From Escherichia phage ph0011: a stretch of 64,000 nt of DNA. The notes under the pieces are model-generated. The model saw only the letters and a program-made list of their open reading frames with translations, did not search any database and was not told where the DNA came from. A program made the translations under genes and the position numbers. The stretch is from sequence record OP557969.1, one strand, 5' to 3'. This document shows, one piece after another, positions 1-62,927 of the stretch (position 1 is the stretch's first letter; every line of letters starts with the position of its first letter).

Positions 1-51
1 AAAGTACACATACAGAGAAGTACTAAAACTTATCTCTATATAAGGTAATAT

Positions 52-240
52 ATGAACAATTTTGAGTACTACTTCAATAAACTAAATTCCATAGAACAAA
101 ATATGCACAAAACATATATTAAGTACTATCAATCATCTGCATCTGGAATTAAAAATATATCAATAAAGATTATCACTAACCGTGTACTGACACCTGAACG
201 TGATATGTATATTGATGTACTGAAACTCATCTCTGTGTAA
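52..240 (+). CDS. small hypothetical protein, divergent FamA-like
   Basis: 62-aa ORF; N-terminus MNNFEYY resembles the downstream KEYYT mini-protein array. Confidence 0.4.
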   Translation: MNNFEYYFNKLNSIEQNMHKTYIKYYQSSASGIKNISIKIITNRVLTPERDMYIDVLKLISV

Positions 241-250
241 GGAATAAACT

Positions 251-430
251 ATGAACAATTTCTATATAGAACACATAAACATTAAAGACCGTTTCATGTA
301 CGACACCTTCGTGAAGTACTACAACCTCGCAACTAACAGTACTAAAAATATTAATCTCAATAGCTGCATACACCAAGCACTAACAAAAGATAATCCCTTC
401 AGGGAAATCCTCGCTCTCGCATCTGTATAA
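251..430 (+). CDS. small hypothetical protein (about 59 aa), FamA-like N-terminus
   Basis: ATG shortly after upstream stop; N-terminus MNNFYIEH; below ORF-track length cutoff; coordinates hand-read. Confidence 0.35.
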   Translation: MNNFYIEHINIKDRFMYDTFVKYYNLATNSTKNINLNSCIHQALTKDNPFREILALASV

Positions 431-441
431 AGGAATCTAAT

Positions 442-1104
442 ATGAAACTTAATCAACACAGCAAACAATACCTTAAGCACTTTAAATACCTCAACAGTAT
501 TCAAGCAGAATCAGTTACATCATCTTATACGTATCACCCGAATATACTAAAGAAACGAAATAAAAAGAAAAAATCCAGAAATGTTCTCGTATCTAAGAAC
601 CTCAAATCGTACTTGAAGAAAAATAATATAGCTCTTGCTTTTATTAGTATCTATAATACTGATTTAAAAGTATTGAGTACTAATACCAGCACAAAAGCAC
701 TAAAGAATGCATCTATCTATATACACATTGATAATATCCCGTGCACTATAATTCTATCTTTCGGGAATGTATACTTCTTCGGGAATTGTAATAGCACCCA
801 TGATATCAGTACTGCACAATTCCAAATCGGAGATATGTACTGCATGGGTTCAGAAAAAATACACGATAACATGCACTTCTTCCAAAAGCAACGTACTAAC
901 GAAACTGATACAGTACTGCAATTCCTCAAAGAACTAGAACACAAAGAATTATCCGACGAAGAAGAATTCATGTACAGTACTGTAATCGATAATCCAGGAC
1001 TCTATAAAAACGCGTACAAACTAACAAAACATGTCCAGGAACTTATCAGTACTGATAAGAAATTTCATCACCTCATTACGTATATAACCTCTACAATGTC
1101 CTAA
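442..1104 (+). CDS. hypothetical protein (220 aa)
   Basis: Long ORF; RBS-like AAGGAA upstream; no recognisable domain. Confidence 0.5.
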   Translation: MKLNQHSKQYLKHFKYLNSIQAESVTSSYTYHPNILKKRNKKKKSRNVLVSKNLKSYLKKNNIALAFISIYNTDLKVLSTNTSTKALKNASIYIHIDNIPCTIILSFGNVYFFGNCNSTHDISTAQFQIGDMYCMGSEKIHDNMHFFQKQRTNETDTVLQFLKELEHKELSDEEEFMYSTVIDNPGLYKNAYKLTKHVQELISTDKKFHHLITYITSTMS

Positions 1105-1125
1105 CTCTAATATATAGATACTAAT

Positions 1126-1317
1126 ATGAAAAATCAATACAAAGAACTATACACAAAATATTTCCCCCAGTACCTGATCGAACACCTGGAACATACCAGA
1201 AACTTAAACACTAAAATTAATAAAGCAAGATTCATTATGTGCACTAAATCAGTAATAGATACTACCAACTATAATAGCGTACTATATCACATCCTGTACC
1301 TAACATTCGTGTACTAA
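1126..1317 (+). CDS. FamA mini-protein
   Basis: N-term KELYTKYFP, central MCTK, C-term LTFVY; tandem array. Confidence 0.55.
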   Translation: MKNQYKELYTKYFPQYLIEHLEHTRNLNTKINKARFIMCTKSVIDTTNYNSVLYHILYLTFVY

Positions 1318-1327
1318 AGAGAACAAT

Positions 1328-1510
1328 ATGCATAAAGAATACTACACAAATAAACTCCCTATGCATCTACAACACCTTATACCAATAAAACCTATTGGCA
1401 TAAAAGATCATGAAAAAATAATGTTCCAACAATGTACTAAGTACACCCTAATAGACGATGACAATCCATATATGCTGTACTATATAATAATGCTAACATT
1501 CAGGTACTAA
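1328..1510 (+). CDS. FamA mini-protein
   Basis: N-term MHKEYYT, C-term LTFRY. Confidence 0.55.
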   Translation: MHKEYYTNKLPMHLQHLIPIKPIGIKDHEKIMFQQCTKYTLIDDDNPYMLYYIIMLTFRY

Positions 1511-1511
1511 T

Positions 1512-1700
1512 ATGAATAACCACAAAGAATACTACACACAATTCCTCCCCAGCATTTTTGAACACTACGCCAGATATAAAGTCCCTCTGGATAACGAGTT
1601 GGCAGTACTCGGATTCAATAACTGCATAGAACGAAGTATAGAAAATAGTAGTACATATGACCAATTGTTTAACACTATCCTACTTATATTCAGGTACTAA
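1512..1700 (+). CDS. FamA mini-protein
   Basis: N-term HKEYYTQF, C-term LIFRY; 1-nt spacer to upstream stop. Confidence 0.55.
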   Translation: MNNHKEYYTQFLPSIFEHYARYKVPLDNELAVLGFNNCIERSIENSSTYDQLFNTILLIFRY

Positions 1701-1701
1701 T

Positions 1702-1890
1702 ATGCATAAAGAATACTACACAAAAGATTTTCCAATGTACCTCAAAACTAATCTATTAGATAAACCCCGCAACATCAATGCTCAAAACGATAAAGTGTAC
1801 TTTACTATGTGCACTAAAGCATGTATACTAGATTTTGATAGCTATCATCGAGTACTGTATCATACCCTGTACCTAGCTTTCGTGTACTAA
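1702..1890 (+). CDS. FamA mini-protein
   Basis: Start moved to internal MHKEYYT (track ORF 1657 reads through upstream gene); C-term LAFVY. Confidence 0.55.
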   Translation: MHKEYYTKDFPMYLKTNLLDKPRNINAQNDKVYFTMCTKACILDFDSYHRVLYHTLYLAFVY

Positions 1891-1900
1891 AGAGGCCAAT

Positions 1901-2107
1901 ATGAACGAACAGAAAGAATTTTACACCAAACACCTCAGTACATCAGAACAAATGTTTCTAAGGAGTGTATCACCTTTACGTTTAGATACACCACACGCCA
2001 GAGATTGCTTTAATAATTGTATACGTATTACTCTAGAAGCTTTAGAAAACAATAACAAAAATATTCAGTACTCAGGCGTAATGGGACTAATATTCTTCTA
2101 TGAATAA
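1901..2107 (+). CDS. FamA mini-protein
   Basis: N-term KEFYTKHLS..EQMF, C-term IFFYE. Confidence 0.55.
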   Translation: MNEQKEFYTKHLSTSEQMFLRSVSPLRLDTPHARDCFNNCIRITLEALENNNKNIQYSGVMGLIFFYE

Positions 2108-2288
2108 CAAAGAATTCTACTTAAACCATCTGGAACTAAACTCCCAAATGCTTATACCACTAAAACCAATAGATATCAAGGATAAGAAAAATACCAAACA
2201 ATTCCACTACCACACACTATGTGCTATCAACCCAGATTATAATACATATAAATTGTTCTACATCATCACCCTAATACTCAGGTACTAA
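2100..2288 (+). CDS. FamA mini-protein
   Basis: N-term NKEFYLNHL, C-term LILRY; overlaps upstream stop. Confidence 0.5.
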   Translation: MNNKEFYLNHLELNSQMLIPLKPIDIKDKKNTKQFHYHTLCAINPDYNTYKLFYIITLILRY

Positions 2289-2289
2289 T

Positions 2290-2475
2290 ATGCACAAAGA
2301 ATACTACACACAATTCGTTAAAGAAAACTACAAACACGCCGTACACATAAAACCATTAAATTCTAATGACCCAAATACCATATTCTTGTTTAAGGACGCA
2401 ACACGTACAGTACTCAATACTAAAGATGAACAGGTGCAGTACGTATTCTTACTATTACTTATATACAGACACTAA
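2290..2475 (+). CDS. FamA mini-protein
   Basis: N-term MHKEYYTQF, C-term LIYRH. Confidence 0.55.
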   Translation: MHKEYYTQFVKENYKHAVHIKPLNSNDPNTIFLFKDATRTVLNTKDEQVQYVFLLLLIYRH

Positions 2476-2480
2476 CTAAT

Positions 2481-2690
2481 ATGAATACAGAACATAAAGA
2501 ATTCTATTCCAAACACCTCAGCCCCTCAGAACAAATGTTTATAAGATCTACACCACCATTAAGTACTGATACATATTTCGGCAGAGTATGCTACAATAAA
2601 TGTGTACAAATGACTTTAAACGCAAACGACAATAATAACAGTACTAACATGTACTCAGGTATAATAGGTATACTATTTCTATATGATTAA
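2481..2690 (+). CDS. FamA mini-protein
   Basis: N-term EHKEFYSKHLSPSEQMF, close paralog of 1901..2107. Confidence 0.55.
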   Translation: MNTEHKEFYSKHLSPSEQMFIRSTPPLSTDTYFGRVCYNKCVQMTLNANDNNNSTNMYSGIIGILFLYD

Positions 2691-2865
2691 AGAACATAAA
2701 GACTTCTACATAAGAAAACTAACATTCGTCCCCGTAAAAATATACAAAGAATGCGACCCAAGATTATACCTGTGGCACTTCAATGAGTGCATAAAAGATT
2801 CTATATACCCTAAGAACTACAAAGAACAATTGTGCTCAGTACTAACACTAGTACTATCATATTAA
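2683..2865 (+). CDS. FamA mini-protein
   Basis: N-term KEHKDFY, C-term LVLSY; overlaps upstream stop. Confidence 0.5.
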   Translation: MIKEHKDFYIRKLTFVPVKIYKECDPRLYLWHFNECIKDSIYPKNYKEQLCSVLTLVLSY

Positions 2866-2878
2866 TAGAGATAATACT

Positions 2879-3082
2879 ATGAATAAAGAACATAAAAACT
2901 TCTATATAAGTAAACTAAAAGAAAATGAACAAGCATGGATTAGAACTATAATAATACTTCCATTTAATAGATACGCACTGAATAGATGTACACAGATTGC
3001 TATAGACCCTTATCCCATTGAAGAGGATGTACAGTACAATCAATACTACTATATCTTAATGCTTATATATAGACCTATATAG
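2879..3082 (+). CDS. FamA mini-protein
   Basis: N-term KEHKNFYISKL, C-term LIYRPI; RBS GAGA upstream. Confidence 0.55.
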   Translation: MNKEHKNFYISKLKENEQAWIRTIIILPFNRYALNRCTQIAIDPYPIEEDVQYNQYYYILMLIYRPI

Positions 3083-3098
3083 GAAATTACACAGGCGA

Positions 3099-3148
3099 AT
3101 TGTTAAAATTCAGCCTGCCATACGTCTGTATTGTTAAAATTCAGCCTG
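3099..3148. repeat. direct repeat ATTGTTAAAATTCAGCCTG x2
   Basis: Two 19-bp copies about 12 bp apart at start of non-coding hub. Confidence 0.6.
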
Positions 3149-3228
3149 GACAAATTCGATCACCAGGATTCTCTCCAGGCTAAACCACGTAACTCTACAG
3201 AGAAGCTATTAGCTTCTCTTTGTCATAT

Positions 3229-3460
3229 GTAGTCATAAGTAATCATATATAAACATTTAAGTAATCATTTATAATCACAGTAGTGAACAGTAGTGAGTAC
3301 TAGAGTACAGGAATGTGCACGTTTAATCAAGAACGTAGCAGTACTGATATGCCACTAAGTAGGCAGAGGAAGTCTGCCGTACTTTGTAGTTTCCAAGCTC
3401 CTTTTCCATTTTGCAAATTACATCAACTGTAATCAAAAGTAATCACATAATGATTAGTAC
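3229..3460. repeat. cluster of short direct repeats (GTAATCA about 5 copies, ACAGTAGTGA x2) and a GGCAGA/TCTGCC hairpin
   Basis: Seen by eye in non-coding sequence. Confidence 0.45.
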
Positions 3461-3489
3461 TGAATTATTACTTTCACCTTAATTTCAAT

Positions 3490-3560
3490 TACCCCTTTAC
3501 CCTTCGGGGTAAATGTATTTTTATCCATTTACCTTTGGGGTAAAATCCCATTACCCCTTG
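3490..3560 (+). other. cluster of consecutive short hairpins (TTACCC-TTCG-GGGTAA and variants)
   Basis: Three tandem GGGGTAA-containing inverted repeats, first with UUCG-type loop. Confidence 0.4.
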
Positions 3561-3744
3561 AGGCTCCAGCAAAAAGTTGGAAAGTACTCCATCGTAAATC
3601 TGGATCGTAAAAATTTTGGAGTACCTATGAAATAAAAGTTGGATCTTCGAAAGTTGAAATTTACGTTGGGACGTTTATGATTTGTGGGATATAATGAGTT
3701 TTGTAGCGATACAGTTTATACGATTTTAGAACTGCATAATGAAA

Positions 3745-3775
3745 GAAAGCTATTGACATTATGATTCAGTACTGT
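3745..3775 (+). promoter_or_regulatory. sigma70-type promoter with no ORF downstream
   Basis: TTGACA, about 16-bp spacer, TATAAT with TG upstream of -10. Confidence 0.5.
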
Positions 3776-4179
3776 ATAATGTTCTACATAGGGTGATGAC
3801 TTGCCGCAAACATTTCATTGACTCTACCTCCTGTCGTGAGACAGTACAGAAAAGATAGTTCCTCCTGTGGTGGTACATCTTTTTGAACCTCATGTAAAAA
3901 AACGTAATAACAGTACTGATATTAACAGAATGGTGTCAGTACTGACTTTAATCTAATACATTATGCCACCAGCACAAGCTGGTGGATTCCCTCTAACAGT
4001 ATTCAGTACTACATGATAGTCTTCATCCTCCTAGGGTAACATAGTGAGGGCTATTGTGGGAGTACTGAATACTCCTTTCAAAAGATAGAATAATGGTATA
4101 GTACCGACGGATTTTGGGCGTAGTTACCCTGGGTGGATTTTGGACGTAGATATGTCTAGCCCTCCAGAAGTCTGGAAGT

Positions 4180-4300
4180 AAAGATGGCTATCTATCTAGA
4201 CGGCTAAACGGCTAGATTTCTAGATGGCTGTATGGCTAGACGTTTGGATGGCTAAACGGCTAGATGGTTACACGTCTGGAAGTATAGACGGCTAAATCAA
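4180..4300. repeat. iteron-like array of GGCTA(GA) repeats
   Basis: At least 8 GGCTA copies at about 8-12 bp spacing, flanked by two GTCTGGAAGTA copies. Confidence 0.6.
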
Positions 4301-4634
4301 AATTTTTATTTTGTTTTTCCAATAGTTCCCCTACCGCGTGAGGATATTTTTCCCCGCAGTATCTGGAGTTAGATTTTTCTGAATCTGGAATCATTATCTA
4401 ATAAACTGGGGGCAATGTCAACCGCCTGGATGAATATTTTTAAAAAAATAATCTAGTACTGAATTTTGGGCGTAACTATGCACCCGGTGGGCTTGAGTCT
4501 TTCTCGACTTGATGGAACTATTATACAGTACTGAAAAAATAAAGCAATACCCTGGAAGCAAAAAAATTTTAATTAATTTGCTTGCTATTCTGGGCCGTAC
4601 TATGGTACTATTAATTCAGTACTGAGAAAGTGCT

Positions 4635-4722
4635 TTTACCTGCTAGGGTGCGGGAGTGTATCCTTTTTAAATTTTATGAATTTTGGGCAGATCTCCGCAC
4701 CCTGTGGGTTAGTGCCTTGTGT
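4635..4722. repeat. inverted pair of GGGTGCG-core element (AGGGTGCGGGAG ... CTCCGCACCCT)
   Basis: Arms about 45 bp apart; same core recurs at about 6530, 13520, 17240, 20520 and 23260. Confidence 0.5.
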
Positions 4723-4992
4723 CCGGCTTATGTAGTAATTATACGCTTTTTCAGTACTGAGTCAATACCTAAAAACAAAATAATTGAAAATAATTTAACG
4801 CGTTTAAACGGCCCGTAAAGCCCTGGAATGATTAGAATGGTGCAAATGTATAGCTTAGGTGTATTAATGCGTTAGAATGCGTCTGAGGCCGTTTTACGGG
4901 GTATAGGGATGATTTAGTGGATTGATTCAGTACTGAATAATAGTACTCCTATATAGAAAGAAAACTATTTTAAAAGTATTTGTAGAAAGTAC

Positions 4993-5051
4993 TTGCACCG
5001 TACTGATAAAAGCGTATAATGTTTTACATCGAGAGCGGGAACACTTCCCGC
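4993..5051 (+). promoter_or_regulatory. early promoter plus 5' leader hairpin cassette
   Basis: AGTACTTGCAC -35, TATAAT -10, GTTTTACAT, then GCGGGAA-cac-TTCCCGC hairpin, then RBS. Confidence 0.6.
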
Positions 5052-5075
5052 TACACATTAAGAGAGATTAAAACG

Positions 5076-24537: not shown

Positions 24538-24699
24538 TGCGTAAAAGGATTTAGTACTGATTCAGAAAAAAGTCAAGGCGTTTTTAAAATTATGCGTTAA
24601 AAAAATGCATAGGTAATCCCTTGACTTTTTTGAAATAAAAGGGATTGGACTATGGCAAAATGCGTAGGGGGCTAAAGGGCGGGTAACCTTAGCGACTTC

Positions 24700-24750
24700 G
24701 ATAAAGGGGTATTACGAATAAAATGTTATTGACTTTTTATATAAATCGTA
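24700..24750 (+). promoter_or_regulatory. sigma70-type promoter heading the FamB array
   Basis: TTGACT, about 17-bp spacer, TATAAAAT; no further promoter seen for several kb. Confidence 0.5.
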
Positions 24751-62402: not shown

Positions 62403-62927
62403 ATGTCGAAGAAGGATACTTCGAAGAAAAAGCAATCAGTACATTTCAGTACTGGAAAAGATAACTGGACAACTCCAAAGGATTTCTTTGAAGAGTTGGA
62501 TGAGTTATGGGGATTCACACTTGATGCTGCTTGTGTTGATGAGACGGCATTATGTGAAAATTATTTTACACCAAATGACGATTCTCTATCACAGGATTGG
62601 GGAAAGAATATAGTTTGGTTAAACCCGCCATATAGTGATTTGAAAACATGGTTATCTAAAGCAGTAGATGCGTATAATAAAGGAGCAACAGTCGTAATTC
62701 TAGTTCCATCACGAACTGATACAATAGCCTTCCATGAATATGCTGCAAAAGTTTGTGATTGTATTTGTTTCATTAAAGGAAGATTACGATTTGGTATCCC
62801 AGAAGAACCAGAGAAGAAGACAGATTCAGCACCATTTCCTTCATGTCTTATAGTTCTTGATAATTACTTAACTACTGCTAAAATAAATTATCTTAAATCT
62901 ATTGGGTTGGTAATGAAGAAACTATGA
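62403..62927 (+). CDS. phage Dam-type DNA N6-adenine methyltransferase
   Basis: N-terminal W-x-TP...F..L......FTLDAA and catalytic NPPY motif, as in phage Dam-family MTases; RBS AAAGGA. Confidence 0.75.
   Translation: MSKKDTSKKKQSVHFSTGKDNWTTPKDFFEELDELWGFTLDAACVDETALCENYFTPNDDSLSQDWGKNIVWLNPPYSDLKTWLSKAVDAYNKGATVVILVPSRTDTIAFHEYAAKVCDCICFIKGRLRFGIPEEPEKKTDSAPFPSCLIVLDNYLTTAKINYLKSIGLVMKKL

Follow-up and report, generated by a model that had tools for sequence, protein, structure and literature searches.

What does a dense array of short GGCTA repeats do in a long untranslated region of a jumbo phage genome? The array in question occupies approximately positions 4150 to 4293 of a 64,000-nucleotide stretch of Escherichia phage ph0011 (sequence record OP557969.1); this whole stretch is hereafter called the window, and positions refer to it unless another genome is named. 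A sequence-only reading of the window had likened the array to origin iterons or a partition site. Judged by their sequence, the "GGCTA repeats" are best described as 14 to 18 head-to-tail operators of the MetJ type, i.e., met boxes, and not as iterons, and the analysis as a whole suggests that the arrays serve phages to recruit or sequester a regulator of the host and not to mark an origin of replication. The sequence-only reading was probably right to see a protein-binding repeat array and probably wrong about its function; about the spacing of the repeats it was wrong.

The array does lie in the non-coding hub where it had been placed, and it far exceeds chance. GGCTA occurs 29 times in the whole 64 kb, for an expectation of 0.05 per 115 bp, and seven exact copies are found in the array alone, at 4186, 4202, 4210, 4234, 4250, 4258, and 4290 (four as ACGGCTA and three as ATGGCTA). 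The earlier count of at least eight copies is thus too high for exact matches; a near match, GGCTG, lies at 4226. The spacing had been described as roughly helical, but the period is 8 bp: all seven copies are in phase modulo 8 (the gaps between them are 16, 8, 24, 16, 8, and 32 bp), which has a chance probability of about (1/8)^6, and repeat finding together with Tandem Repeats Finder returned periods of 8, 16, and 24. The array is therefore a series of contiguous 8-bp units without spacers, and re-registering it by two bases gives the unit AGAYGKCT. Both copies of GTCTGGAAGTA that were said to bracket the repeats are present, and they are the only two in the window (4170..4180 and 4274..4284, plus strand, in phase with one another at a distance of 104 bp, or 13 x 8). 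The first spans the junction of two in-phase boxes. One GGCTA (4290) lies past the second copy, and each copy itself consists of two in-phase units. No second array of this kind was found elsewhere in the 64 kb, so the description of the array as unlike anything else in the window holds.

Read in the new register, the core of the array (4182..4293, plus strand) comprises 14 uninterrupted met-box-like units, each at or above the published single-box threshold. Units 1 to 7 are, in order, AGATGGCT, ATCTATCT, AGACGGCT, AAACGGCT, AGATTTCT, AGATGGCT, and GTATGGCT, and units 8 to 14 are AGACGTTT, GGATGGCT, AAACGGCT, AGATGGTT, ACACGTCT, GGAAGTAT, and AGACGGCT; the match to the met box is seen in units such as AGATGGCT, AGACGGCT, AAACGGCT, AGACGTTT, ACACGTCT, and GGATGGCT. 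A degenerate extension continues the phase upstream at 4150..4181 (plus strand) with ATATGTCT, AGCCCTCC, AGAAGTCT, and GGAAGTAA, two of which exceed the threshold.

The met box, with the consensus AGACGTCT, is the 8-bp site of the host methionine repressor MetJ; each box takes one MetJ dimer, and a working site requires two or more boxes side by side (Augustus & Spicer 2011). For scoring we used the published symmetrised MetJ matrix with its thresholds of at least 3.15 bits for a box and at least 12.58 bits for a site (Augustus & Spicer 2011), and the matrix was first tested on 16.5 kb of Escherichia coli K-12 met loci. There it returned only the known operators, with 2–4 boxes and 15–31 bits, namely metB/J (4 boxes, 31.2 bits), metA (4 boxes, 27.1 bits), metF (4 boxes, 24.9 bits), metE/R (3 boxes, 21.1 bits), metC (2 boxes, 18.9 bits), and metK (3 boxes, 15.0 bits). 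When the window was scanned, the sole gap-free site was 4182–4293, with 14 boxes and 99.7 bits. If single failing boxes are allowed, the site grows to 4150–4293, with 16 of 18 boxes passing and 116.9 bits. The quality of the individual boxes is that of host operators (7.1 bits per box in the window array vs. 5–9.5 in the operators), and no run in 100 Markov-simulated windows was longer than four boxes.

As a control for specificity, the arrays were also scored with 5,000 randomised palindromic matrices of equal information, each in its best register. The real MetJ matrix outscored all 5,000 for the window array and for six of seven other phage arrays; for the array of Vibrio phage Pontus, a fraction of 0.001 of the randomised matrices reached the real score. 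Base use at each array position follows the met-box profile, i.e., A over G at position 1, G at 2, A at 3, C or T at 4, G at 5, C at 7, and T at 8. Position 3, the most informative in the matrix, is A in 16 of the 18 boxes of the window array.

The window belongs to an Asteriusvirus, a 121Q/PBECO4-like jumbo phage, and its hub is 87–92% identical to Asteriusvirus jumbo coliphages such as 121Q, PBECO4, and vB_Ec-M-J. Eight Asteriusvirus genomes carry 12, 16, 17, 18, 18, 19, 19, and 24 boxes. Their arrays differ in length by whole 8-bp boxes only, positions 7 and 8 are invariant, and the four boxes of the upstream extension are kept in relatives as well. Because insertions and deletions of 8 and 16 bp would shift a reading frame, the array is not coding, and a coding array was ruled out on these grounds. 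At the homologous place, arrays of 12–17 boxes are found in Eneladusvirus (phages of Erwinia, Serratia, and Yersinia) and in Mimasvirus (GAP32, CBB, XbC2, and Kaldavass), with diverged sequences, the same box profile, and shared flanks; across the three genera the array sequences are only about 70% identical.

On the left, the conserved flank consists of two GGATTTTGGRCGTAG repeats found by repeat search directly 5' of the array (4109..4149, plus strand), and the corresponding place directly 5' of the array is taken by GAATTTTGGGYGTA in GAP32, Eneladusvirus, and CBB. On the right, the last box is directly followed by a 25-bp A/T-rich tract, AAATCAAAATTTTTATTTTGTTTTT (4294..4318, plus strand), and then by the conserved flank motif CCAATAGTTCCCCTACCGCG (4319..4338, plus strand). 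A T-rich tract followed by CCAWTAGYTCCCCTWCCGCG stands 3' of the array in all three jumbo-phage genera, and the CCAWTAGYTCCCCTWCCGCG pattern adjoins the array in 10 viral loci on Asterius-, Eneladus-, and Mimasvirus-type contigs. Four GRATTTTGGGCGTA-type repeats were also seen in this part of the hub, at 4109, 4135, 4461, and 4677, the last two each followed by a GCACCC-N-GTGGG hairpin; GAP32 and Eneladusvirus have equivalents of this element, and the T5-like hubs contain ATTTTGGGGGAT-like strings.

Where the array lies relative to the genome ends can be read from related records. The untranslated hub of about 2 kb that contains it (3083..5075, delimited by the list of open reading frames (ORFs), the sequence, and the annotation of relatives) is flanked by two runs of small plus-strand ORFs and crosses a boundary of the direct terminal repeat. 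The physical left genome end, which is the start of this repeat, lies at 3358..3378 (plus strand), begins AGTAGGCAGAGGAAGTCTGCC, and has a hairpin inside; five related records (vB_Ec-M-J, BF17, ELP-22, fEgEco12, and E9.1) start exactly at the equivalent of 3358. In vB_Ec-M-J/OQ718158 the direct terminal repeat is annotated as 1–21,525. By homology to its end, we place the right repeat boundary (...GGGTAACCT / TAGCGACTTC, plus strand) in 24680..24700, at about 24,689, for a terminal repeat of about 21.3 kb. The array thus sits 792–935 bp inside the left edge of the terminal repeat and, being inside it, is present in two copies per packaged genome. Wherever termini have been determined, the array is 650–810 bp from the left end; in XbC2, whose termini were assigned by PhageTerm as "long ends type T5," it occupies 648–775.

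Arrays in other phage families were found by blastn and a pattern scan and scored with the MetJ matrix. Among T5-like phages, Aeromonas phage AhSzq-1 has 28 boxes (221 bits), Vibrio phage Pontus has 16 of 17 boxes, with arrays in about 30 relatives, and Providencia phage PR1 has nine near-consensus boxes (GGACGTCT, AAACGTCT) at 9.8 bits per box. The T7-like phages PGT2 and phiKT (Ermolevavirus) have nine boxes, and a 120-kb viral contig of unclassified type (L033) has 34. In PGT2 both terminal copies have the array at bases 38–109 from the DNA end, ahead of the first annotated gene. In PR1 it lies about 0.8 kb inside the inner boundary of a 10,461-bp terminal repeat, at 8.1% of the genome; the first-step transfer of T5 DNA halts at 7.9% of the genome, in the injection-stop region. 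The arrays of Pontus and AhSzq-1 are located between DnaA boxes and DRD-type repeats, the part of the genome in which the injection stop signal of T5 has been described.

A further observation concerns T5 itself. The DRC/DRE repeats of its injection-stop region (L011, 9470–9640) match the Fur-box consensus at 13–15 of 19 positions, e.g., TTAAATGAGAATCATTATC, and these Fur-box-like repeats occupy the spot of the met-box arrays in T5 relatives. The Eneladusvirus hub contains GCGAATGAGAATCATTACC (L004, 1042–1060). This hints that sites for different host regulators are interchangeable at the injection-stop location. No strong Fur sites were found in the hub of the window.

Apart from one case, the hosts reported for the array-bearing phages have MetJ. 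MetJ homologues are reported only in five gammaproteobacterial orders, and 94 of the 95 phage records with a blastn match to the Aeromonas array are named after hosts from MetJ-bearing orders (Escherichia, Vibrio, Erwinia, Aeromonas, Salmonella, Providencia, Pectobacterium, Cronobacter, and Serratia). E. coli, the host of the window phage, has metJ. A tblastn search of 50,697 phage records for MetJ retrieved only three host-derived sequences, so any MetJ on these arrays must come from the host. No counterparts of the array were found in 72,556 plasmids or in E. coli chromosomes.

From these sequence comparisons, we consider it fairly probable that host MetJ, loaded with its co-repressor S-adenosylmethionine (SAM), coats the array cooperatively and uses it as a landing pad. 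One dimer would bind each 8-bp box, neighbouring dimers would touch to form a continuous cooperative coat over 110–145 bp, and loading would need no phage gene product. This binding geometry is established for MetJ, for which co-crystal entries with DNA exist (e.g., 1CMA), and we infer its use on the phage array.

If MetJ does bind, the chances are about even that the coat is a block or marker associated with the genome end. It might pause DNA entry, as at the T5 injection-stop region, or take part in the step that defines or processes the repeat boundary. Such a role is favoured by the constant placement of the arrays with respect to repeat boundaries in three lineages, by the T5-type injection-stop location, where only host or virion proteins are available, and by the presence of a different repeat motif at the same spot in T5. 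Somewhat less likely, the array is instead a sink that titrates MetJ as genomes replicate, which would relieve the repression of methionine and SAM synthesis in a host whose phage methylates its own DNA. The excess and variability in box number, the lack of a promoter, and the two copies per genome speak for a sink, as do the phage's own Dam-type methyltransferase and the heavy methylation of related jumbo phages, which are methylated at Dam and Dcm sites. The methyltransferase is encoded in the early region by an ORF at 62403–62927 (plus strand), whose product strongly matches the phage Dam-type N6-adenine DNA methyltransferase family (PF05869, E = 7e-33) and carries an NPPY motif; it is a SAM-consuming enzyme. 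Some other role for bound MetJ is unlikely.

Taken across phages, it is a plausible reading, to which we give slightly less than an even chance, that each of three unrelated lineages (Rak2-like jumbo myoviruses, T5-like Demerecviridae, and T7-like Ermolevavirus) has set a "super-operator" of 9–34 boxes near its genome ends, co-opting MetJ for genome-end biology or as a titratable target. MetJ could then be part of the host factor behind T5-type injection pausing or repeat-boundary processing; alternatively, it could be a target whose titration rewires host methionine and SAM metabolism. In the literature searched, with most subscription journals outside its coverage, we found no prior description of met-box arrays in phage genomes.

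Several observations weigh against MetJ as the binding protein. Position 6 of the window array is T in nine of the 18 boxes and G in the other nine, while G occurs there in 10% of host boxes. This position pairs with the most informative position of the matrix, and G is found there in about half of the phage boxes. The Vibrio phage array also prefers A at position 4. Together, these departures mean that the binder could have a related but different specificity. No promoter-like site was found within 4142–4293 and no met genes among the scanned ORFs of the window (the 10 ORFs flanking the array and 81 ORFs of at least 95 aa, with smaller ORFs away from the array outside the scan), so the array is not a conventional operator. 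Nor is it universal even among relatives, given that the matrix scan found no met-box array in T5 and that RaK2 gave no blastn match to the array region. XbC2, with its array intact, is reported on Xanthomonas vesicatoria, and Xanthomonas is outside the five MetJ-bearing orders; because Kaldavass, a relative with 84.6% similarity, infects Erwinia, the host identification of XbC2 may be at fault.

The similarity of the units to met boxes must also be read with care. A loose five-box pattern scan in IUPAC (International Union of Pure and Applied Chemistry) code over bacterial genomes and viral contigs found met-box-like 8-bp microsatellites, mostly monotonous exact repeats, in bacteria outside the five MetJ-bearing orders, and the matches listed were dominated by monotonous 8-bp microsatellites from many phyla. 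Likeness of the unit alone is therefore no proof, and the case rests jointly on box diversity, position-specific conservation, recurrence across phage families, and host range. The two proposed roles have difficulties of their own as well. T5- and T7-like phages shut off or destroy host DNA, which makes a sink a weak explanation for them; the block or marker is without a defined mechanism, and tblastn found no homologues in the window of A1 and A2, the pre-early proteins on which second-step transfer depends in T5.

What else could explain the array? The alternative to be taken most seriously, although we think it unlikely, is that a phage-encoded protein binds the boxes and that the likeness to met boxes is coincidence or mimicry. 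The protein might be a small ribbon-helix-helix (RHH) protein for which the boxes are a centromere or a site of silencing, or else the small subunit of a terminase or an end-processing factor. RHH proteins do coat 8-bp-phased arrays of 8–20 degenerate boxes, as ParG does on parH/OF of TP228, an array whose size and period resemble those of the window's 14–18 boxes. In TP228 parH, 4-bp boxes alternate with 4-bp spacers and one ParG dimer binds each box, with cooperative coating and an avidity that rises with box number. MetJ is itself an RHH protein. Three points would fit a phage protein: host boxes do not share the excess of G at position 6, a constant distance from the genome end is what a packaging factor might require, and XbC2 comes from a reported host outside the MetJ-bearing orders. 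However, three unrelated phage families would have to share that protein or evolve the same specificity, and essentially no palindromic matrix could fit the arrays better than that of MetJ. The TP228 box is ACTC with an AT spacer, and ParG and ParF are encoded beside their site, whereas no RHH, ParA, or ParB family was found among the scanned ORFs around and beyond the phage array. The array also has no plasmid counterpart.

Origin iterons, whose initiator would bind the repeats and melt the adjacent A/T-rich tract, are very unlikely. The T-rich tract at 4294–4318 stands beside the array and is kept in three genera, the non-coding region is large, and cumulative GC skew has a local minimum at the repeat boundary; direct repeats beside an A/T-rich tract in non-coding DNA are indeed what the origins of P1 and lambda have. 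Yet iterons are about 17–22 bp long and in helical phase, their initiator is encoded nearby, and DnaA or IHF sites usually stand beside them. The phage array was found to share none of this: its units are 8 bp, contiguous, and not helically phased, DnaA boxes and IHF sites are absent from the hub, and the ORF scan returned no Rep or initiator family. The skew tracks the orientation of the genes, being negative along stretches of minus-strand genes, and this accounts for most of its sign change at the repeat boundary. The array of the T7-like phage lies 38 bp from the DNA end, and those of the T5-like phages lie in the injection-stop region, whereas T5 origins map near the genome centre. Of the earlier comparison with origin iterons or a partition-site array, what survives is the presence of phased short repeats of a protein-binding type with the 8-bp geometry of TP228 parH; iteron size and phase, DnaA and IHF sites in the hub, Rep or Par families in the scanned ORFs, and a plasmid counterpart were not found.

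A functionless minisatellite produced by replication slippage in non-coding DNA is highly improbable. Close relatives do vary in copy number by whole units, and simple 8-bp microsatellites are common in many genomes. The boxes here, by contrast, are diverse and not monotonous, and their variation is limited to particular box positions; the array is kept between conserved flanks in three genera despite its divergence, and the same box profile recurs near genome ends in unrelated phages. We find it barely credible that the array acts as RNA or single-stranded DNA, be it as a structured transcript or as a sponge for a GGA-binding protein such as CsrA. The single strand folds with z = -5.0, some boxes would read GGAUGG, and a perfect sigma-70-type promoter lies about 370 bp upstream (3753–3780), but such folding is expected from quasi-palindromic units, most boxes contain AGA and not GGA, and terminator-like hairpins stand between the promoter and the array. 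No Rfam match was obtained (permissive thresholds gave only a chance match to a long non-coding RNA), and the PGT2 array, so close to the DNA end, precedes the first annotated gene. In relatives, the loss of whole boxes (up to 48 bp) would break the predicted long hairpin. A CsrA sponge or structured RNA was rejected on the strength of these deletions and of the fold expected from unit symmetry. No tRNAs were found in the window.

Several known systems resemble the array. The MetJ operators of E. coli (metA, metBL/metJ, metC, metE/R, metF, and metK) share with the window array the adjacent 8-bp units of the same consensus, the tolerated variants GGATG.CT and AAACG..T, and a similar box quality. 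E. coli MetJ operators have up to five boxes. The phage arrays differ in length, with 14–18 boxes in the window and up to 34 in other phages against 2–4 in the operators compared here, and in setting, as the window array has no promoter overlap and no methionine gene beside it and lies within the terminal repeat of a virulent phage.

The T5 injection-stop region (Repeat Region 3), with its repeats and proposed sites for host proteins (DnaA boxes, paired within inverted repeats), is likewise a long untranslated repeat-rich region at a terminal-repeat boundary, and the window hub spans the boundary at 3358. It differs in that the jumbo hub lacks DnaA boxes, the window lacks A1/A2, and the hub is at the left repeat boundary while that of T5 is at the inner right boundary; two-step DNA transfer is a T5 feature, and none is known for jumbo phages. 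The SRL and SRR elements of T7 are short-repeat arrays that reportedly flank its terminal repetition, and in standing beside the direct terminal repeat of a phage they resemble the arrays described here. Their unit, however, is CCTAAAG-like, irregularly spaced, and not met-box-like. To our knowledge, no host factor is known for them.

If MetJ coats the arrays, a textbook metabolic repressor would be used by virulent phages outside any promoter, on arrays that are 3–8 times longer than any host operator and that stand at genome ends. MetJ would then be a candidate host factor for the stop and restart of DNA entry in T5-like phages and for how long direct terminal repeats are delimited. Alternatively, the arrays would be decoy DNA that titrates a transcription factor in a natural setting, tying infection to the SAM status of the cell. 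Either role, if true, would be a DNA-encoded, protein-free hijack of a host transcription factor. On the practical side, a met-box array offers a simple signature for locating termini and terminal repeats in assemblies of jumbo and T5-like phages from MetJ-bearing hosts.

Other features were observed around the ends of the terminal repeat. The hairpin at the left end is GGCAGAGGAAGTCTGCC (3358–3378). The inferred right repeat boundary is followed by GCGACTTCG, which is the reverse complement of the CGAAGTCGC-type motif found at the left end of Eneladusvirus (CCTGAAGTCGC). The signal for end processing could be a GAAGTC motif that stands inverted at the two repeat boundaries. Close to the terminal repeat, on its outer side, two exact copies of the 19-nt sequence ATTGTTAAAATTCAGCCTG form a direct repeat at 3099–3117 and 3130–3148 (31 bp apart), which is followed by TAAGTAATCAT-type repeats with a 10–12-bp period at 3222–3296. 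In window positions 1–3300, where the small ORFs run on the plus strand, GC skew is nevertheless strongly negative (-0.12 to -0.41) and AT skew is +0.2; the skew turns to about +0.1 on crossing the boundary of the terminal repeat. In vB_Ec-M-J, the homologous ~5 kb that precede the right-hand copy of the repeat show the same skew pattern as 1–3300. About 5 kb before the right terminal repeat of vB_Ec-M-J also ends a run of 14 consecutive minus-strand genes annotated as "regulator of chromosome condensation" (RCC1-like), at 333–351 kb of that genome (L054, 26,100–44,600).

The motif AGTACT is greatly enriched in the window, with 248 occurrences vs. about 21 expected from base composition, and CAGTACTG occurs 60 times. 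It is found inside or beside sigma-70-like promoters, either as TTGACA-N16-TATAAT with CAGTACTG in the spacer or as AAAGTACTTGCA...TATAAT; examples are at 3753–3780 and at approximately 4980–5021. The AAAGTACTTGAC context is common to Eneladus- and Mimasvirus hubs. The AGTACT motif is probably a phage-specific early-promoter element or operator. Further into the window, from 33,000 to 58,000, there is a long head-to-tail run of plus-strand ORFs of about 150–200 aa, nearly all without a Pfam match, which may be an expanded paralogous family.

Outside phages, degenerate 8-bp arrays of NNATGGCT or NNATGGTT units, some of them arranged as inverted blocks, were noticed in the Bacteroidota genome contigs L069, L075, L152, L110, and L123. 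As met boxes they are weak (about 4 bits each), and they may serve an unrelated DNA-binding protein.

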